NCBI GenBank assembly: GCA_046590575.1
Contig: JBKJUS010000107.1
Coordinates: forward strand, 9,934 to 73,933
Reading direction: 5' to 3'
DNA length: 64,000 nt
Source: Mycobacteriales bacterium
GTDB taxonomy: Bacteria; Actinomycetota; Actinomycetes; BP-191
Position 1 is the first letter of the stretch. Each line of letters begins with the position of its first letter. The notes beneath the pieces were generated by a model. That model did not search any database. It saw only the letters and a program-made list of their open reading frames with translations, and had not been told where the DNA came from. Made by a program: the position numbers and the translations under genes. Positions 7,347 to 39,200 of the stretch are shown here, piece by piece.

Positions 7347-8107
7347 GAGTCGCCTTTGTGGGAAAGGGTGGGGCCGGCAAGTCGGCCATCGCCGGCACGT
7401 TCGCCCGGTCGCTCGCGCGTCGCGGCACATCGGTGCTCGCGTTGGACACCGATCCGCTCCCCGGCCTGGCGTTCTCGCTAGGCCTGCCCTCGACAGACGC
7501 GCCGATCCCGGAGGAAGCCACCGAGGAGAAGGCCGAAGGGGAGGATGGCCCGCGCTGGCGATTGCGCTCGGATCTGACGCCAGTAGAGGCAGTAGAGCGG
7601 TACGCCGCAACGGCGCCCGATGGCGTGCGCTTCCTGCAGTTCGGCAAGGTGCGGCGTCAGTGGACGGCGCCGGAGGTTCGCTCGCAGTTCGTCTTCCGGC
7701 AGATCGTTCATTTCCTCCCTGAGGAGCCGTGGAGCCTCGTCGGTGACCTTCCTGGTGGCACCCGACAGGCGTTCGGCGGGTGGGGGGGCTTCGCCCGCAC
7801 CATGCTCGTGGTGGTCGACCCCAGCGCCAAGTCGCTGCTTTCGGCTCGAAGGCTGGCCCGACTCGCCTCGATCGGCGAGGACCCGCCGCGGGTTGTTGCG
7901 GTGGTCAACCGCGTGCGTCAGGACGACGACGAGGCACTGGTGGCGCGGCGTAGTGGGCTCGATGTGGTGGGCGCGGTGCCATGGGACGAAGAATTCGCCG
8001 ATGCCGAACGTCGTGGCCTGGCGCCCATAGACGCCGCGCCGAACTGTCCGGCAGTGAAGGCAGTAGAGTCCCTCGTCGACCGACTGTGCGAGGAGTCCAG
8101 AGCATGA
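7343..8107 (+). CDS. CooC/MinD/ParA-family deviant-Walker-A P-loop ATPase, Cys-less paralog A
   Basis: N-terminus MRVAFVGKGGAGKSAIAGTFARSLARRG (KGGxGK[ST]). The conserved C-terminus is DAERRGLAPIDAAPNCPAVKAVESL. It has no CxC metal-binding motif and is closest to the paralog at 12846..13586. Confidence 0.8.
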   Translation: MRVAFVGKGGAGKSAIAGTFARSLARRGTSVLALDTDPLPGLAFSLGLPSTDAPIPEEATEEKAEGEDGPRWRLRSDLTPVEAVERYAATAPDGVRFLQFGKVRRQWTAPEVRSQFVFRQIVHFLPEEPWSLVGDLPGGTRQAFGGWGGFARTMLVVVDPSAKSLLSARRLARLASIGEDPPRVVAVVNRVRQDDDEALVARRSGLDVVGAVPWDEEFADAERRGLAPIDAAPNCPAVKAVESLVDRLCEESRA

Positions 8108-8844
8108 AGCTAGCCGTCGTCGGCAAGGGTGGGTCGGGCAAAACCACCACCTCCGCGATCATCGCGCGCACCTTCGCCCGAAACGGCGCGAACGTCGTCG
8201 GTCTCGACTGCGACTCCAACCCGAACCTCGGCATTTCGCTAGGTGTCGGCGACGACGAGACGGAGCGGCTTGAGTCCATGCGCCAGGCGCTCGACGAGGG
8301 CGACGAGGAGCACGCGCCGGGCTGGGACGAACTGATCGAGCGGTTCGGCTCCGACGCCCCTGACGGGGTTCGCCTCGCGGTGGTCACCCGCATTCAGAAC
8401 CCGGAGCCCGGCTGCCCTTGATGTGGTCTCTCTCCCGAGCAGTTGCTCGGGTCCGTGGACTTCACCGACACCGTCGTCGTCGCTGACCTCGAGGCCGGCA
8501 TCGGCACGTTGACCCGCATGGGTGACCAGAAGATTGACGTCGTACTCGTCGTCGTCGAGCCGACGCCGAAATCCGTCGAGGTCGGCGTACGGGCGTGCGC
8601 GCTCGTGCGGGAGAAGCAGTCGGCTGGGCAGCTCATCGTCGTGGCCAGCCGCGTGCGCAACGACGACGACCTGGCGATGGTGCGCAAGTCGTTCCCCGAC
8701 GAGGAGGTCGTGCCGATTCCTGACGACCCAGCCATCGTCGCCGCCGACCGCGAAGGGGTGGCCGCGCTGGACCGTACGCCGGACGCACCGGCCGTGCGCG
8801 CCCTGGTTGAACTGGCCGAGCGACTGCTGCCTGCAGGCGTCTAG
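8104..8844 (+). CDS. CooC-like P-loop ATPase with an in-frame TGA (8419..8421); candidate selenoprotein, read-through product 246 aa
   Basis: Track ORFs 7981..8421 and 8443..8844 are in the same frame with no other stop between them. The N-part is MKLAVVGKGGSGKTTTSAIIARTFARNG...NPEPGCP-TGA-CGLSPEQLLGSVDFTDTVVVADLEAGIGT..., so the two halves together equal one full-length paralog. The TGA lies inside the CxC-motif region that Cys paralogs have (GCLCSAHATV.., GCTCSGHATV.., ACVCCGSHAT..). A perfect 7-bp hairpin, cccgagc-agtt-gctcggg, sits at about 8434..8451, 12 nt after the TGA. selABCD are in this window. Confidence 0.6.
8434..8451 (+). promoter_or_regulatory. candidate SECIS-like hairpin 12 nt downstream of in-frame UGA 8419..8421
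   Basis: cccgagc-AGUU-gctcggg forms a 7-bp perfect stem. The spacing matches the roughly 11-nt UGA-to-stem distance of bacterial SECIS elements. Confidence 0.35.
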
Positions 8845-32256: not shown

Positions 32257-33095
32257 TAGCGAACGTCGCCGGCCTGGGTGCCGATGTCGAGGAACTGCAC
32301 CACAGCGGTCACGTCCGCGTTGAACACGAAGCCGCGGGTGGCTTCGGAGACCCGGTATCCCTGCTGCTCGGCGAAGGTGCGCATGTGCCCCGGGAGCAGG
32401 CTCGACATCGCGAAGAGGGTGCGGGCATATGGATCGGGAAGACCGACCTCGGTGTCGGGGAAGGCCACCGGAGCGGAGCGGTCGGAGGAGACGTGCAGGT
32501 TGAAAAGCAGCACCCGGCCGTCCTCGCTGCTGAGCTCACGAACAGCTTCAGCTGCTGGTGAGGGGTCACCCTCGGACGACTCGCCGTCGGTCAGGTTGAG
32601 CACGACCGGCGGGAAGCAGCGGGGGTGCTCCGCAAGCCACCCAGCAAGGGTGGTCCGAGCTAGCTCGAGAGCTTGCGGCATCGGGGTTCCGCCGTCGGCC
32701 CGCGGCTCTACCCACGTCGGGAACTGCACAGTGGTGGCGACCAGGCCCCCGGCGCCGTCCGGCACCATCTTCTTGCGCTCCTCGAGCCGGGTGGGTGAGT
32801 CGGCAACCTCGCTGAGTGGGACGAGCAGCCGGTCTGCGAGAGACCCGCCGAGAGCGGGTCCCAGAGTGGCGCCGTACCCAATGACCCCGATGTGGAAGTA
32901 GTCGCGCACGCCCTCTTCCTTGGCACATTTGACTGATAGCTCGGACAACAGCCGGTTGAGGGAATCAGCGACGACATCAGACTTGCGCTGCGGCACCTCG
33001 CCGCCGCCGATCCGATCGGACATCGACGCGGACTGGTCGAGCAAGAATAAGAAGCACGTCGGATTGCCGCGGCTGATCTGCGCCGTGTACGCCAT
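32256..33095 (-). CDS. von Willebrand factor A (vWA) domain protein, TerY-like
   Basis: The MIDAS motif is FLLDQSASM and NLTDGES. A cytosolic vWA sits upstream of the PP2C and kinase genes. Confidence 0.8.
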   Translation of the reverse strand: MAYTAQISRGNPTCFLFLLDQSASMSDRIGGGEVPQRKSDVVADSLNRLLSELSVKCAKEEGVRDYFHIGVIGYGATLGPALGGSLADRLLVPLSEVADSPTRLEERKKMVPDGAGGLVATTVQFPTWVEPRADGGTPMPQALELARTTLAGWLAEHPRCFPPVVLNLTDGESSEGDPSPAAEAVRELSSEDGRVLLFNLHVSSDRSAPVAFPDTEVGLPDPYARTLFAMSSLLPGHMRTFAEQQGYRVSEATRGFVFNADVTAVVQFLDIGTQAGDVR

Positions 33096-33158
33096 GGTCC
33101 TGCCTCTCGCAGCGGCTGGCCGAGTGGCCAGGGTAACCCGAGGTTCAGCCGCTTGCCG

Positions 33159-34964
33159 CTACGGCAGGGGGCCAGGAGCAGCCACCACCACGCGCTGGGA
33201 GTCGTCAATGCGGCGGGTGAGACCGAGTCGGTCGAGGTGCTCGAGCAGCGGGACCGCAACCCGACGTGTGGTGCCCAGCGCTTGGCGCGCCTGGCTCATG
33301 GAGAAGGGCTGAGGAAGCGCTGCAAGCGTCGGCAGTGCCGATTCGACGGCGTCCGGGAGAAGGTAGATCCCGTCCGTCAGCGCCAGCAACATCCCGTGCC
33401 GCACCGCCGTCGCAAGAACGGTTGCGGTCAATCCGAGTGAGTCGAGATCCGCGGCGGCCGGCGCGGCGTACGGCGTCTCCGCAAGACGTCGGGCAACCTG
33501 GCTCAGCGCGTCGCTTTGGCCGTCAGTGAAGCCAGGCGCGGCGCCGGCCCGGCGTACCAAGCCGCCGCTCGACTCCAGAGTCGGCACATCGGCGGCCAAC
33601 GCCGAAAGCAGCCTGGCGTCAGGGGCACCGACGGCTTGCCGTGCTGCCTCTGTCGGCAGACCACCGCGCAGCGGGTGCCGGTGTTCGTCATCTGCCACCG
33701 CGGCCACCAGTAAGTGCTGCCATTGCTGCCATTGCGCGGCGGAGATCAACCAGTTCCCCACCTCCACCGTGTCCTCGGGGGCTGGGTCGTCCTGGTGGAT
33801 CACTCCCCACGCCGCGAGCTCTTCCCGGCGGACCGCACCGCGTCGGCGCACCTCGCCAGCCGGGTCCGGTGCGCCGCTCATGCCCTGCAGAGACGTGGCG
33901 CGCCTCGCCGCCCCGCCGCGCCGTGACAGCGGCTCCGGCGCGGCGTCGAGAACGACCACTCCGGCGACCACCCGCTGCTCTCCTGGGTCACGCAGCAGGG
34001 CCCGATCGCCGGGCTGAAGCGGTAGTGCCGCTGTGAGGTGCAGCCGGGCGGTGTCATCGCCGAGTCGGCGTACGTCGACGGCCACAGCGGCGGATCCGAC
34101 GTGCATCAGCAGGGTGGCCGGCAAGCGGGCCGAGCCTTCCGACCCAGCGTCCAGCCGCACGTCGACCAGGTCGGTGGTTCGCCAGCCGCCGACGGTCACC
34201 AGCGCATTGCCCCGGCGTACGTCGGAGACATCGACACCTCGCAGGTTGACCGCGACGCGAGCTACGGCCTCGACCTGGTCGGCATGACGTTTGAGGCTCT
34301 CCAGCCCGCGGACCCGTACCTGGAGGCCCTGCGGGGAGATCTGCAGCGTGTCTCCCACGCGCAGGGTTCCCGCGCCGAGCGTGCCGGTCACCACCGTGCC
34401 GCTGCCCCGGATGGTGAACGCCCGGTCGACCCACAAGCGAACGCGCGCAGCAGGGTCCGGCTCCGGGAGATCACCTACTAGACGATCGAGCGCACTCCGC
34501 AGGTCGTCGACACCTGCACCGGTGACTCCGCTCACCGCTACCGCTTCGACATCACCGAGAGCCGTGGCCCGGAGGTGCTCCAACGCTTCCGCCATGGCCG
34601 GGCCGGGGCTGGCGAGGTCGCAGCGGGTGATCGCGAGCACGCCATGCCGGACCTGAAGTGCGTCCAGCGCTGCCAAGTGCTCGACCGACTGCCGACTCCA
34701 ACCTTCGTCAGCAGCCACGACGAAGAGGACCGCCGGCGCCGGCCCGACGCCGGCGAGCATGTTGGGCACGAAGCGCTGGTGCCCCGGAACGTCGACGAAG
34801 GCGATCTCCACTCCGGACGGCAACGTGGTCCAGCCGAATCCGAGGTCGATCGTCATGCCCCGCCGGCGTTCCTCCGCCCAGCGGTCAGGCTCCATGCCGG
34901 TGAGCGCGCGGACCAACGTCGACTTGCCGTGATCCACATGGCCTGCTGTCGCGACGACGTGCAA
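33159..34964 (-). CDS. selB: selenocysteine-specific translation elongation factor SelB
   Basis: MHVVATAGHVDHGKSTLVRALTGMEPDRWAEERRRGMTIDLGF...FVDVPGHQRF is collinear with E. coli SelB (GHVDHGKTTL...RGMTIDLGY...DVPGHEKF). Length 601 aa with a long C-terminal SECIS-binding extension. Confidence 0.9.
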   Translation of the reverse strand: MHVVATAGHVDHGKSTLVRALTGMEPDRWAEERRRGMTIDLGFGWTTLPSGVEIAFVDVPGHQRFVPNMLAGVGPAPAVLFVVAADEGWSRQSVEHLAALDALQVRHGVLAITRCDLASPGPAMAEALEHLRATALGDVEAVAVSGVTGAGVDDLRSALDRLVGDLPEPDPAARVRLWVDRAFTIRGSGTVVTGTLGAGTLRVGDTLQISPQGLQVRVRGLESLKRHADQVEAVARVAVNLRGVDVSDVRRGNALVTVGGWRTTDLVDVRLDAGSEGSARLPATLLMHVGSAAVAVDVRRLGDDTARLHLTAALPLQPGDRALLRDPGEQRVVAGVVVLDAAPEPLSRRGGAARRATSLQGMSGAPDPAGEVRRRGAVRREELAAWGVIHQDDPAPEDTVEVGNWLISAAQWQQWQHLLVAAVADDEHRHPLRGGLPTEAARQAVGAPDARLLSALAADVPTLESSGGLVRRAGAAPGFTDGQSDALSQVARRLAETPYAAPAAADLDSLGLTATVLATAVRHGMLLALTDGIYLLPDAVESALPTLAALPQPFSMSQARQALGTTRRVAVPLLEHLDRLGLTRRIDDSQRVVVAAPGPLP

Positions 34965-34967
34965 ACG

Positions 34968-36269
34968 TCAGCCCGCCGCTCCGGCAACAGCCAACACCGC
35001 GTCGCAGAGCTCGGCATCACGCGCAGCGGGAACGCAGCGGAGGTCGAGCAGACAACGGTCGCGCTCGACCCGGCCGACGACACAGGGGTCGCCGAGCCGC
35101 AGCGGCTCGGCAAAGCCAGGAGGCAGGGTGACCGCGGCGCCGGGCAGCACGAGACCGGGCGCGCCGCCGCCCCCGACCGCACCGTCGGAGTCCTCCACGG
35201 TGGCGTCGACACCGCGGCTCACCAAGTCGGCGACCATGGCCGCTGCCCGGAGACGCAACCCATCCTGGCTCTCCGCGAGCGCCGATTGGGTCGGCGTAGC
35301 CGGCCCGCGGATAGTTGCTTCGAGAGCTGCGAGGGTGAGCTTGTCGACACGCAGCGCGCGGGCCAGCGGATGCCGTCGTAGTCGTTCAACCAGGTCCGCG
35401 CGGCCGAGGATCAGACCGGCCTGCGGTCCGCCGAGCAGCTTGTCGCCGCTGCACGTCACCAAGCCAGCACCGGCCTCAAGCGCAGAGGTCGCATCCGGCT
35501 CCGCCGGCAGGATGGGATCGGGGTGGAGCAACCCAGAGCCGATGTCGACGACGAGCGGTGGGCCGAGCGCGGCGAGCGCAGCCACGCTGACCGAGCTGGT
35601 GTAGCCCACGACGGCAAAGTTCGACGGGTGAATCTTCACGATGCACCCGGTGGATTCGTTGACCGCGTCGGCGTAGTCCTCAGCCGAGGTCCGGTTGGTA
35701 GTGCCCACCTCACGGATCCGCGCTCCGGTCGAGCAGATCAGCTCCGGCAGGCGGAACCCGTCCCCGATCTCCACCAGCTCACCCCGGCTGACGACAACCT
35801 CGCGTTCGGCAGCCAGGGCGGTGACCGCAAGGACAAGGGCTGCTGCTCCGTTGTTGACGGTGAGGGCTGCCTCTGCGGCGGGCACTGCCGAGAGCAGCGC
35901 TGACGTCGTGCCGCGTCCCCGCGACGCGCGACGTCCGGTGGCCACGTCGTACTCAAGGTCGACGTAGCCCGCGGCCATCGTGACGGCGGCCACCGCCTGG
36001 TCCGAGAGAGCGGCCCGGCCAAGATTGGTGTGCAGCACGACGCCGGTTGCGTTCAGCACCGGGCGCATCCGCACCGGCACGCCGGCCAGGGCGCGGGCGA
36101 CCTCGTCGGCGACCTGATCGGGTGCGATCTCTCCGGCGCGGGCGCGGGCCACGGTATCGATCACGACCCGTTTTGCTTCCGTCCGGTTCACGCGCTCGAG
36201 CGCGGCGAGCACGCGGGGCTCGGCGAGCACGGAGTCGACACGTGGCAGCTGACGCCTGCTGTCTGTCAT
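34968..36269 (-). CDS. selA: L-seryl-tRNA(Sec) selenium transferase SelA
   Basis: LPRVDSVL, NATGVVLHTNLGRA and the PLP-fold region match SelA. The stop abuts the selB start, and the start is the ATG at 36269. Confidence 0.9.
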   Translation of the reverse strand: MTDSRRQLPRVDSVLAEPRVLAALERVNRTEAKRVVIDTVARARAGEIAPDQVADEVARALAGVPVRMRPVLNATGVVLHTNLGRAALSDQAVAAVTMAAGYVDLEYDVATGRRASRGRGTTSALLSAVPAAEAALTVNNGAAALVLAVTALAAEREVVVSRGELVEIGDGFRLPELICSTGARIREVGTTNRTSAEDYADAVNESTGCIVKIHPSNFAVVGYTSSVSVAALAALGPPLVVDIGSGLLHPDPILPAEPDATSALEAGAGLVTCSGDKLLGGPQAGLILGRADLVERLRRHPLARALRVDKLTLAALEATIRGPATPTQSALAESQDGLRLRAAAMVADLVSRGVDATVEDSDGAVGGGGAPGLVLPGAAVTLPPGFAEPLRLGDPCVVGRVERDRCLLDLRCVPAARDAELCDAVLAVAGAAG

Positions 36270-36567
36270 GAGCTCCCTCGGCCACACCGGTTTTGAAGCC
36301 TGACCTTACCGATTTCGGCGACCCTGCTGAGCGGCGCAGCCTTGGCCGTGACGGCGGAACTCGGACAGGAAACCTCCACCGTTGGGCGGACGCTTCCGCG
36401 CCGGGCGCGATGCATCCTGTGCTGATGCCGTCCTCGGGACTCTCGCCAGTCACCCTGTCCGCATCCACGCTCCGGACGCATCCATCGGAGACCCCGTGAA
36501 GCTTCCTGTTCGTTCCGCACTCGTCGTCGCCGCGGCTTCCGCTCTGGTGTTCCGTAGTCAGAGCATG

Positions 36568-36663
36568 TGGCGGAGGCGGACGGGAATCGAACCCGCCTGA
36601 CCGAGATCCTCGGCCACACCGGTTTTGAAGACCGGGAGGGCCACCAGGCACCTGTACGCCTCC
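36568..36663 (-). tRNA. selC: tRNA-Sec (selC), anticodon UCA, 96 nt, CCA encoded
   Basis: The reverse complement reads GGAGGCGTACAGGTGCCTGGTGGCCCTCCCGGTCTTCAAAACCGGTGTGGCCGAGGATCTCGGTCAGGCGGGTTCGATTCCCGTCCGCCTCCGCCA. The anticodon loop CUUCAAA carries UCA, there is a long variable arm, the GTTCGATTC T-loop is present, and it has an extended acceptor stem. It lies between selA and selD. Confidence 0.85.
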
Positions 36664-36725
36664 AGCGCAGGAGCCTATTGCAGCGGCGCGACACACATCG
36701 TGGCCATCGACATAGCATCGCGGCT

Positions 36726-37739
36726 ATGACGGTGACGGAGAGCGCGAAAACGTATCGGCTGACGCAGTTTGCCCACGGGGGTGGCTGTGCCTGCAAGATC
36801 CCGCCCGGCGAGCTCGAGCAGATCGTCGCCGGTCTGGTCGGACTTGATCCGTCCGACGGGACCGCGGAGCTGCTCGTCGGTCTGGACGGGGGTGACGACG
36901 CTGCAGCGGTGCGCATCGATGCGAAGACCGCGGTGCTGTCGACGGCCGACTTCTTCACCCCCGTCGTCGACGACGCCTACGACTGGGGCCGGATCGCTGC
37001 CGCCAACGCGTTGTCGGACATCTACGCGATGGGCGGCACCCCTCTGCTCGCCATCAACTTGCTCGCGTGGCCGCGAGACGTCCTGCCCCTGGAGCTGGCG
37101 ACCGAAGTGCTCAGAGGCGGTTTGGATGTTGCCCGCGAGGCACGCTGCCACGTGGCCGGCGGACACAGCATCGACGATCCCGAGCCGAAGTACGGCATGG
37201 CCGTCACCGGGGTCGCCCATCCCGATCGCCTGTTCCGCAATGACGCGGGACGCCCGGGCGACGTGCTCTCGTTGACCAAGCCGCTGGGCATCGGCGTGCT
37301 TAACAGCCGGCACAAGCAGACGGGGGAGGTTTTTCCCCAGGCCATCGACGCTATGACTTCTTTGAACCGCGATGCGGCAGGTCACGCGCTGGCTGCCGGT
37401 GTCCGTTGCGCGACGGATGTGACTGGCTTCGGCCTGCTGGGCCATCTGTACAAACTCGCGCGCGCCAGTGGAGTCACCGCCGAGATCGACTCCAGCGCTG
37501 TGCCCTATCTCGACGGCGCAGTGGCCGCGGCGCGCGACGGCTTTGTTAGTGGTGGGACGCGCCGCAACCTCGACTGGGTCGACCCGCACGTCGACTTCGG
37601 CACCATGGATGAGGTGCAGCGGCTGCTCTTGGCCGACGCGCAGACGTCAGGGGGCCTCCTCGTCGCCGGTGAGGTGCCGGGCGCGCCGATCATCGGACGC
37701 CTGGTCGCGCGCGACGGAGTGACCGTTCGGGTCCGGTGA
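36726..37739 (+). CDS. selD: selenide, water dikinase SelD (selenophosphate synthetase), Cys-type
   Basis: MTVTESAKTYRLTQFAHGGGCACKIPPG... is collinear with E. coli SelD (RLTQYSHGAGCGCKISP). The active-site residue is Cys, not Sec. Confidence 0.9.
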   Translation: MTVTESAKTYRLTQFAHGGGCACKIPPGELEQIVAGLVGLDPSDGTAELLVGLDGGDDAAAVRIDAKTAVLSTADFFTPVVDDAYDWGRIAAANALSDIYAMGGTPLLAINLLAWPRDVLPLELATEVLRGGLDVAREARCHVAGGHSIDDPEPKYGMAVTGVAHPDRLFRNDAGRPGDVLSLTKPLGIGVLNSRHKQTGEVFPQAIDAMTSLNRDAAGHALAAGVRCATDVTGFGLLGHLYKLARASGVTAEIDSSAVPYLDGAVAAARDGFVSGGTRRNLDWVDPHVDFGTMDEVQRLLLADAQTSGGLLVAGEVPGAPIIGRLVARDGVTVRVR

Positions 37740-37858
37740 AAGGGCGGACGACGTCGACGCGAAGATTCCCGGTGATCAAGACTTGTCTCGACCGCCGCCG
37801 AAGGCGATAGTGCCTATATGTGATCGGCCCATAGGGCCGCCGTTCGCGAGGAGCCGCC

Positions 37859-38107
37859 GTGGTGCTGTGGTGGATCGGCAACGCCGTCCTACTGCTGGTT
37901 GTGGTCCCGCTCGTCGTCATTCTTGCGGACCGACTGCTCAAGCCAGTGCGCGAGATCCGCGCTTACGCCGACGACATCCTCGACCACGGGGTCAGCCTGA
38001 CCAGCGCCCTCGACTCCGTGCCTAAGCTGGTGACGACCACTGAGCTGACGGGCGTCGCTAAGGGCCTCGTCGGTCGCTACGGTGCGGCGCTGCAAAAACT
38101 GCTGTGA
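37859..38107 (+). CDS. small single-pass membrane protein, member 1 of a 5-gene paralogous family
   Basis: 82 aa with an N-terminal TM (WWIGNAVLLLVVVPLVVILA) and a ~50-aa helical tail similar to the following ORFs. Confidence 0.5.
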   Translation: MVLWWIGNAVLLLVVVPLVVILADRLLKPVREIRAYADDILDHGVSLTSALDSVPKLVTTTELTGVAKGLVGRYGAALQKLL

Positions 38108-38150
38108 ACAGCCCCGGCGCCACCATGACAGCCACCCCGGAAGGGACACG

Positions 38151-38429
38151 ATGAGCGCGGCCGCGATTACCACCCTGGTCGGCGTCGGACTGCTCGCCGG
38201 CGCACTGGTGCTCTACCTCAGCATCGTCGCCTACCACCTGTCGAAGGTGAACTTCGCTCTCGGCACCGTCGTCATTGGGGTGCGGGCGATTGCCAACCAG
38301 ACCCAGCCGGTCGAGGCCGTCGTCGGCAGCATCGCCGGCGACGTGGCCGCAATCGACGACGCGCTCAAGGCCTTGGTAGTGCTCGCGACCACTCCGAAGC
38401 CGGGCGTTCGCGCCCGGGCATCCCGCTGA
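38151..38429 (+). CDS. small single-pass membrane protein, family member 2
   Basis: The internal ATG has the RBS aagggacacg. The sequence is MSAAAITTLVGVGLLAGALVLYLSIVAY... followed by a helical tail. Confidence 0.5.
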   Translation: MSAAAITTLVGVGLLAGALVLYLSIVAYHLSKVNFALGTVVIGVRAIANQTQPVEAVVGSIAGDVAAIDDALKALVVLATTPKPGVRARASR

Positions 38430-38454
38430 CCGAACGCTGACGAGAGGACGCCGC

Positions 38455-38631
38455 ATGGCTTACAAGTGGGGTTGACGGGATTCCGACCACACCTGCAGGT
38501 GGCAGGCCAAGGGCGAGACCGAAGAAGAGTTGTTGGCGAAGATCGCTGAGCACGTGAAGAAGAAGCACGCCGTTCACACCGTGTCGGACACCATCGTCAA
38601 CTTCGTGGTTCAGGACGTGAAGAAGACGTGA
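38455..38631 (+). CDS. DUF1059-like mini-protein with in-frame TGA at codon 7 (38473..38475); candidate selenoprotein
   Basis: The RBS gagagga is 6 nt upstream of the ATG. The translation is MAYKWG-U-RDSDHTCRWQAKGETEEELLAKIAEHVKKKHAVHTVSDTIVNFVVQDVKKT. It resembles the DUF1059 layout (Mxx-aromatic-xCxD...C...TEEEL...HAKxxHG) with the TGA at the first conserved Cys. A GC hairpin cacc-tgca-ggtg starts about 14 nt after the TGA. Not in the ORF track because it is under the size cutoff. Confidence 0.5.
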
Positions 38632-38652
38632 GCTCGCCGAAGGAGAGTTCGG

Positions 38653-38922
38653 ATGGATGACCTTGTTGCGGTCAGCCTCAGGGGCTGGTACATCGGATTC
38701 GCCATCGCCGGTGTCGCGATCGCGGTGGTCGTCGTGCTCGTCGCGATCATCATGACGATGGCTCGTCGGATCGCGATCCAGGCGGCGGCCATCACCGAGG
38801 GGCTCGACCAGGCGCGGGTGCACACGCTTGCGCTGTGGGATGTCGCGAAGGTCAACGAAGGCCTGACGAGCATCGTGGGTAGCGCCGCAGCCGCGCGAGG
38901 GGTCTTGGAGGCAAAGCTGTGA
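38653..38922 (+). CDS. small single-pass membrane protein, family member 3
   Basis: 89 aa, TM at IGFAIAGVAIAVVVVLVAIIM. The stop overlaps the next start. Confidence 0.5.
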   Translation: MDDLVAVSLRGWYIGFAIAGVAIAVVVVLVAIIMTMARRIAIQAAAITEGLDQARVHTLALWDVAKVNEGLTSIVGSAAAARGVLEAKL

Positions 38923-39200
38923 ACGTCGCGCTGGCCGACAACGAGATCACCATCTGGTGGGTGACCCTTGGCCTTGGTCTTACCGTCGCGCTCGTGGTCA
39001 TCATCCTGCTCTCACTGCTGACGGGTCTGGTGCGCGACATCGACCACAACGTCGACGACGTGTGGCAGACCGCGACCCGCGTCGCCCGTAACACCACGAC
39101 GGTGTGGATACTTGGTCAGACAGCCGGCCTATCGGCGGCGTTGCGCGACGAGGTCGCCCAGCATGCCGCTCTCTTCGAGGCTAACAAGAGGCGACGATGA
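38919..39200 (+). CDS. small single-pass membrane protein, family member 4
   Basis: 93 aa, TM at IWWVTLGLGLTVALVVIILLSLL. ATGA overlap with the next gene. Confidence 0.5.
   Translation: MNVALADNEITIWWVTLGLGLTVALVVIILLSLLTGLVRDIDHNVDDVWQTATRVARNTTTVWILGQTAGLSAALRDEVAQHAALFEANKRRR

Follow-up and report, generated by a model that had tools for sequence, protein, structure and literature searches.

The selA leader of a Mycobacteriales genome carries an exact 23-bp copy of the middle part of the neighbouring selenocysteine tRNA gene, selC. We analysed this copy in a 64-kb stretch of DNA (the window) and in the sel loci of related genomes. The reading that we favour, with a probability of roughly 55%, is that a segment of selC was inserted in front of selA by an old templated event, was taken over as the selA 5′ UTR and ribosome-binding site, and was later re-homogenised with the tRNA gene by conversion. 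On this reading, the arrangement shows no new principle in the regulation of selenocysteine synthesis.

The features of the locus are listed in Table 1. The tRNA-Sec gene was recognised by Rfam RF01852 with 78.6 bits (E = 1.6e-15, gathering score 47). The spacing between selC and selA is 298 bp (36270-36567), including a terminator-like hairpin, and the selA AUG occupies 36269-36267 of the reverse strand. An in-frame GTG at 36285-36287 on the same strand lies inside the repeat, and a longest-ORF rule adds six codons (MWPREL-) to selA. Alignment of the homologues and the position of the apparent Shine-Dalgarno sequence agree in supporting the ATG at 36269 as the start. Owing to the GTG in the repeat, automated annotation may mis-call the start of selA.

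Table 1. Positions of the sel genes and of the elements between selC and selA (numbering of the 64-kb window)
Feature	Position	Strand	Evidence or remark
selB	33159..34964	-	NCBIfam TIGR00475, 276 bits, cut-off 242.25
selA, 433 aa	34968..36269	-	NCBIfam TIGR00474, 411.9 bits, cut-off 267.9
Putative Shine-Dalgarno sequence GAGGGAG, followed by CUC and AUG	36273..36279	-	Read from the sequence
Repeat copy 2 (selA leader)	36276..36298	-	Almost the entire putative selA 5′ UTR (CUUCAAAACCGGUGUGGCCGAGG)
TAAGGT, putative -10 box, 33 nt before the AUG	36303..36308	-	Sole TANNNT within 60 nt upstream of selA
Terminator-like hairpin UCCGCC-CAAC-GGUGGA with U-rich tail	36365..36390	-	Between selC and the putative selA promoter
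Remnant of a secreted-protein gene (start codon and signal peptide only)	36496..36552	+	BLAST against L001, L001 ORFs, protein family
selC, tRNA-Sec, anticodon UCA; putative donor of the copied segment	36568..36663	-	ARAGORN; Rfam RF01852
Repeat copy 1 (inside selC)	36608..36630	-	tRNA positions 34-56; Rfam alignment structure
selD, divergent from selC	36726..37739	+	NCBIfam TIGR00476, 394.8 bits, cut-off 125

The sequence CCTCGGCCACACCGGTTTTGAAG was found as two exact copies in the 64-kb window, and no third copy was detected there with up to three mismatches allowed. This confirmed the exact tRNA-Sec copy in the selA leader that had been described in the initial annotation. A repeat finder returned the same 23-bp pair, 332 bp apart from start to start. 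None of 100 dinucleotide shuffles contained two matches to CCTCGGCCACACCGGTTTTGAAG, and the duplication far exceeds chance. As a control, we searched 11 other tRNA-Sec loci for matches of the tRNA in its own flanks (several kb, about 2-9 kb per locus), and the longest exact matches were only 11-12 nt.

According to the structure line of the Rfam alignment, the first base of the repeat coincides with that of the anticodon loop. The copy inside selC comprises the anticodon loop CUUCAAA, ACCGGU from the anticodon stem (3′ strand), G47, UGGCCGAG from the variable stem (5′ strand) and G56, which is the first base of the variable loop. Neither the 5′ strand that completes the anticodon stem nor the 3′ strand that completes the variable stem is present in the leader copy. 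Having one strand per helix, the leader is unable to rebuild either tRNA arm. The anticodon loop named in the initial annotation is present with all of its 7 nt, but with a single strand of each stem the leader copy does not amount to an anticodon or variable 'arm'.

On the selA strand the order is ...CGGUAAGGUCAGG-CUUCAAAACCGGUGUGGCCGAGG-GAGCUC-AUG. The copy had been placed 7 nt before the start codon; this is correct when counted from the end of the repeat to the A of the AUG, but the spacer itself is 6 nt (GAGCUC). The repeat ends in GAGG, and with these four bases the apparent Shine-Dalgarno sequence begins; the proposal that GAGG acts in ribosome binding agrees well with this placement.

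Relatives were collected by SelA scans of genome and metagenome contigs, by protein search and by contig look-ups. The closest was L001, with 78% SelA identity; no relative above 78% was found in the genome, metagenome and protein collections searched. In 7 of the 9 relatives with called starts, the only TANNNT in the upstream 60 nt, taken upstream of selA or of the first gene of its operon, was located 6-7 nt before the start codon. The placement in L016 and L006 was similar. The background frequency of TANNNT in the compared loci is 0.00047 per base. A TANNNT at 6-7 nt is the usual signature of leaderless genes in the transcription-start maps of mycobacteria and streptomycetes. This pattern points to a leaderless mRNA as the usual template for SelA synthesis in the actinobacterial relatives. 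A single TANNNT motif (often TA[AG]GGTC) 6-8 nt before the start, without a Shine-Dalgarno sequence, was observed in L036, L043, L003, L021, L038, L037, L044, L016 and L006.

The TAAGGT box of the window also occurs in L036 and L016. In the window and in L001 it is located further from the start codon, at 33 and 29 nt, respectively, and the extra length fits tRNA-like segments of 23 and 20 nt plus a few bases. As the excess roughly corresponds to the length of the tRNA-like segment, the segment seems to have been inserted between the -10 box and the start codon. We infer the promoter role of TAAGGT, the transcription start and the leaderless state of the relatives from sequence motifs.

Only L001 has a leader that is homologous to that of the window. 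It reads CTTCGAACCGAGGACCGAGG, with 16 of the 23 positions matched to the tRNA, UCG in place of UCA and 3 nt fewer. In a position-specific global alignment with tRNA positions 34-56, this 20-nt patch scored better than 99.93% of shuffles (p = 0.0007), and just 2 of 6868 genomic 20-mers scored as high. As the L001 patch is still tRNA-like, the tRNA-like segment appears to be older than the split between the window lineage and L001. Our view that the window has the derived and sole tRNA-like state was dropped, the L001 patch being itself tRNA-like in this test. The window and L001 do not differ in the 18 nt upstream (TCGGTAAGGTCAGGCTTC) or on the GGAGCTCATG side. The repeat interior is the most divergent patch of the conserved block, with 9 of 20 positions identical as against 19 of 20 on each side. 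L017 retains just the last ~12 nt at the same place (GACCGAGAACTC-ATG). A Shine-Dalgarno-like sequence is found at the same position in both, GAGGAG in L001 and GAGAA in L017.

No significant similarity to tRNA-Sec was detected in about 20 other selA leaders. Two further candidate similarities were rejected. One, a tRNA-like stretch upstream of the GNAT-selA operon in L044, scored 7.5, below the 95% background level of 10. A likeness of the L001 leader to the T-arm (GGTCAGGC, a three-position gap and TTCGA) was not significant (p about 0.05-0.16).

The exactness of the window copy requires an account of its own. At four-fold degenerate sites, selA of the window and that of L001 are 49% identical, compared to 37% expected from composition, and the branch lengths of the two lineages are similar. 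With neutral sites so near saturation, the perfect identity of the 23-mer is not a neutral relic. The initial annotation had offered a scar of a partial selC duplication as its second explanation. This comes close to the reading that we favour, except that the scar would now serve as 5′ UTR and Shine-Dalgarno sequence and that neutral persistence does not explain its exact identity.

The identity probably reflects short-tract gene conversion with selC, 332 bp off. Features of gene conversion are present: the donor is located upstream on the same strand and is identical at 23 of 23 positions, and the differences of L001 are clustered between conserved flanks. The leaders of L001 and L017 have GACCGAG, which is the present state of the L017 tRNA, while the window leader has GGCCGAG, the present state of its own tRNA. 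Sharing this state, the window copy tracks the current tRNA and not an ancestral copy. The polarity and conversion arguments draw on the three species with any trace of the segment and on essentially one site, tRNA position 50, which is A in the leaders of L001 and L017 and G in both leader and tRNA of the window, and at which the alternative histories are equally parsimonious. We also considered conversion of the tRNA by the leader at position 56; this case was ambiguous, as the tRNA has G only in the window and L017, and the L017 leader has A. Homogenisation is favoured because the copy tracks the current tRNA, the UTR interior of L001 tolerates change, and a deletion has shortened the distance between the copies.

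This deletion is seen in the comparison with L001, relative to which the window is short of about 1.4 kb, so that the repeat copies are now 332 bp apart. The junction (36553-36567) is located 15 bp past the 3′ end of tRNA-Sec. Of a secreted-protein gene still intact in both L001 and L044, the window retains only a remnant. The family of this protein has about 30 members, mostly from metagenome-assembled genomes of Mycobacteriales, and no Pfam domain was recognised in it.

With 23 bp and unrelated flanks, the repeat does not exceed the shortest length at which RecA-dependent recombination usually operates. Since this length is marginal for RecA, conversion would need an event of the template-switch type. 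Template switching is known to homogenise short repeats (PMC8604942, PMC8794818).

Conversion has to be weighed against simple conservation, in which an old insertion was kept by ordinary purifying selection on the promoter-proximal region, the UTR and the Shine-Dalgarno sequence, with neither conversion nor any tRNA function. Purifying selection on the exact sequence in the window lineage would give the same pattern, and the identical flanks of the patch in the window and L001 fit it well, as does an intergenic block of ~190 nt that is far more conserved than the four-fold sites. Much of the difference of L001 could also come from one complex event making CCGAGG-A-CCGAGG. However, L001 has changed in ~10 nt of the interior, which is therefore not strictly constrained, and at tRNA position 50 the window leader has the G of its own present tRNA and not the A of the L001 and L017 leaders. 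We consider conservation of a frozen copy unlikely, though well short of negligible.

The history that would follow from templated insertion and re-homogenisation is as follows. selA would originally have been leaderless, with its TANNNT -10 box 6-7 nt before the start codon. In the ancestor of the window genome and L001, and probably of L017, some 23-28 nt from the tRNA-Sec gene would have been inserted into the gap between -10 box and start codon, by templated insertion or template switch. The insert would have given selA a leadered mRNA, the CCGAGG of the variable arm supplying the Shine-Dalgarno GAGG. If TAAGGT is the -10 box and transcription starts about 7 nt after it, the 5′ end of the transcript would roughly coincide with that of the 23-mer, and the copy would constitute essentially the whole 5′ UTR. 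It would then have decayed in L001 and been mostly overwritten in L017. In the window, short-tract gene conversion or template switching would have made it identical again to the tRNA gene of today, a change that the ~1.4-kb deletion would have favoured by bringing the copies to 332 bp from each other. The extra G after the 23-mer (GAGGGAG, compared to GAGGAG in L001) is not accounted for by tRNA copying.

If this reading is right, templated insertion of a short piece of a neighbouring tRNA gene can give a leaderless gene a leader, and a ready-made Shine-Dalgarno sequence comes with the insert. A 23-bp copy could also stay identical to its donor while neutral sites saturate. The relevance is modest and concerns the evolution of promoters and 5′ UTRs in actinobacteria, as well as the annotation of selA starts.

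A different meaning had been given to the copy in the initial annotation, namely that of a tRNA mimic for autoregulatory binding of SelA or SelB. In a broader form, the leader would be bound by SelA, SelB, SerRS or a modification enzyme and would exert feedback on selAB translation. An exact copy in spite of near-saturated neutral sites means that the identity is somehow maintained, which speaks for such a function, as do the contact and overlap of the copy with the Shine-Dalgarno sequence and the strong conservation of the entire leader region between the window and L001. In placement it also resembles two E. coli elements, the SECIS-like hairpin before selAB and the operator of thrS (PMC13449736). 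The folding of the leader, however, gave no support. RNAfold in contexts of 36, 49, 101 and 328 nt yielded z-scores of -0.5 to -1.3 and no arm-like hairpin, so that the leader RNA showed neither excess stability nor a tRNA-like arm, in keeping with its single strand of each helix. A permissive Rfam scan of 33000-39000 (E <= 1) returned only the true tRNA-Sec and a chance s2m match, and nothing in the leader. The only local partner strand, GGUCA, overlaps the putative -10 box and would stay untranscribed. The L001 counterpart has UCG as its 'anticodon' and lacks 3 nt, and no other part of the leader is less conserved.

Recognition by the candidate proteins is also difficult to reconcile with a mimic. 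SelB and SerRS require the acceptor/T helix or a complete variable arm. For SelA, the account in PMC11047290, citing Itoh 2013, has the N-terminal domain binding the D-arm and the T-loop, and in that account it makes no contact with the anticodon or the extra arm. The initial annotation had named lack of conservation among relatives as evidence against its proposal, and the comparison of leaders gave this result: the copy is degenerate in L001 and lacking in the others, about 20 selA leaders being without tRNA similarity. With no partner strands and no excess folding stability in addition, the autoregulatory mimic for SelA or SelB was not supported, and we regard a functional tRNA-Sec mimic as very improbable. 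We infer that the tRNA likeness of the leader is a by-product of its origin and not a regulatory device.

A variant of this idea does without tRNA structure. Selection would have kept tRNA positions 34-56 as a single-stranded decoy or operator for a factor reading that part of tRNA-Sec, for example SerRS (through the variable-arm strand), a modification enzyme of the anticodon loop, or SelB. We give this variant just as little credence. If it were true, binding beside the Shine-Dalgarno sequence would make selAB translation responsive to the state of the tRNA-Sec pool, through an operator made by copying from the tRNA gene itself. It would then bear on selAB regulation in Mycobacteriales, whose leaders have yielded no SECIS-like element (PMC13449736).

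We also considered and rejected a leader hairpin GGUCA...UGGCC as a permuted tRNA hairpin or circular junction. Directly 5′ of the copy is the 8-mer GGTCAGGC, which has the sequence of the variable-arm 3′ strand and of the C that follows it. However, GGTC belongs to the TA[AG]GGTC -10 motif, which is also found in relatives without a tRNA copy, GGUCA is located upstream of the putative transcription start, and the stability of the hairpin was not significant.

Direct repeats of part of a tRNA gene can also be left by integration. The two 23-mers would then be attL/attR-type repeats from an integrase-driven insertion between selC and selA, with the crossover in the anticodon loop. In favour of this, tRNA genes are well-known targets of integration, the repeat and the anticodon loop begin at the same base, and the cargo between selC and selA differs by lineage (L001, L017, L038 and L044). 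The repeat of the tRNA segment brackets 309 bp in the window and about 1.7 kb with two genes in L001. Several observations argue against this origin. Identity with the tRNA ends at position 56 and is followed by GAGCTC-ATG, and the displaced 3′ part of the tRNA is absent. No integrase was found between or beside the repeats in the window or in L001: the ORFs between the L001 repeats encode two paralogous secreted proteins of an unknown family, and the 309 bp of the window contain no integrase ORF. L017, L038 and L044 have insertions, yet no tRNA-derived repeat at the far end. The putative selA promoter would be located within the 'island', and a scan of viral contigs for the 22-mer core gave no match. 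In addition, the reconstructed empty site, in which tRNA-Sec is joined directly to GAGCTCATG, is impossible for a functional tRNA. An attachment-site scar is therefore improbable in our estimation. We judged an assembly artefact in the metagenome-assembled contig to be extremely unlikely. The window apparently comes from a single NCBI contig (107 kb, one cluster member) with no second assembly found, but assemblers collapse or break at repeats and do not generate a 23-bp duplication 332 bp off, and a homologous tRNA-like leader is also seen in L001, which is another species and was assembled independently.

Next, we compared the selA leader with known systems. The E. coli thrS operator is likewise a tRNA-like sequence with an anticodon triplet beside the ribosome-binding site of a gene that handles that tRNA. 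The selA leader shares with it the overlap with the ribosome-binding site (GAGG), with the AUG 6 nt later. Unlike the selA leader, which has one strand per helix, the thrS operator folds as a complete anticodon-arm stem-loop whose anticodon is read by ThrRS. The selA leader element is moreover not conserved, and reading of the anticodon or extra arm is not part of SelA recognition as described in PMC11047290.

In E. coli, selAB is preceded by a SECIS-like hairpin, located 3 nt from the Shine-Dalgarno sequence, at which bound SelB represses expression (PMC13449736). Both elements belong to the same operon and are found directly upstream of the selA Shine-Dalgarno sequence. The E. coli element is, however, a hairpin of the SECIS type, and the selA leader of the window has neither such a hairpin nor an Rfam SECIS match. 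It also differs from the only SECIS-like hairpin of the window, CCCGAGC-AGUU-GCUCGGG after the UGA at 8419. A 2026 survey likewise found the SECIS-like structure to be absent from mycobacterial selA leaders (PMC13449736). The same work proposed a role of the tRNA-Sec sequence in selAB expression in mycobacteria, through co-transcription of selC and selAB. The order-level group and the gene neighbourhood are the same here. In that model, however, the whole tRNA gene is directly upstream of selA, whereas in the window 298 bp lie between them and the leader has only a 23-nt fragment.

In enterobacteria selC is a classical site of genomic islands. As with the att repeats of islands, part of a tRNA is repeated directly on both sides of a stretch beside selC that is variable and specific to the lineage. 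Unlike them, the identity stops short of the tRNA 3′ end, there is no displaced 3′ fragment, and no integrase was found within or beside the bracketed DNA. Cases of template switching and short-tract conversion (PMC8604942, PMC8794818, PMC7202029) share the clustered difference, the identical flanks and a derived state equal to a nearby donor. They mostly concern inverted repeats, whereas here the repeat is direct, the donor is a tRNA gene and the recipient is an mRNA leader. In its position the selA leader would act like any 5′ UTR that carries a Shine-Dalgarno sequence; with the two E. coli elements it has in common only the placement beside the ribosome-binding site, and with att repeats only the direct repetition of tRNA sequence. 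Templated multinucleotide events between nearby quasi-repeats are the best fit among the compared systems.

The interval between selC and selA varies among the relatives. It is only about 50-90 nt in L037, L042, L005, L006 and L016. A bPH_3/SHOCT gene is found in L017 (= L039-L041), two MFS genes in L038, one secreted-protein gene and a GNAT gene in L044, and two tandem paralogous secreted-protein genes on the opposite strand in L001 (2428-3856). The interval is a hotspot of lineage-specific gene gain, as seen from L001, L017/L039, L038 and L044 in comparison with L037/L042. No integrase or repeats were recognisable in these variable intervals.

The terminator-like hairpin is kept in L001, with a C to U change that retains a G-U pair, and in L044. 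Its G-U pairs are possible on the selA strand only. The intergenic block 36363-36460, which holds this hairpin, is more conserved than the flanking genes. It shares 82% DNA identity with L044, where SelA identity is only 55%, and about 83% with L001. The block had no match in Rfam.

No FdhA-type selenoprotein (with a U-H motif), sought as a source of a reference SECIS, was detected in the window. A GC3-filtered scan pointed instead to a gene for a CooC-like P-loop ATPase (Pfam CbiA) at 8106-8844 on the forward strand, with a single in-frame TGA at 8419-8421. Its homologues are named 'CO dehydrogenase maturation factor', and we found no description of a Sec-containing CooC in the literature. 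A nonsense pseudogene or a sequencing error is an alternative explanation of the TGA. In an alignment with 11 full-length homologues (61-75% identical), the TGA falls on a nearly invariant Cys of the metal-binding motif PGCPCCG(L/I)SPEQLL, and the 7-bp SECIS-like hairpin mentioned above begins 13 nt past the UGA. The CooC-like protein is a candidate Cys-to-Sec selenoprotein in a selABCD genome.
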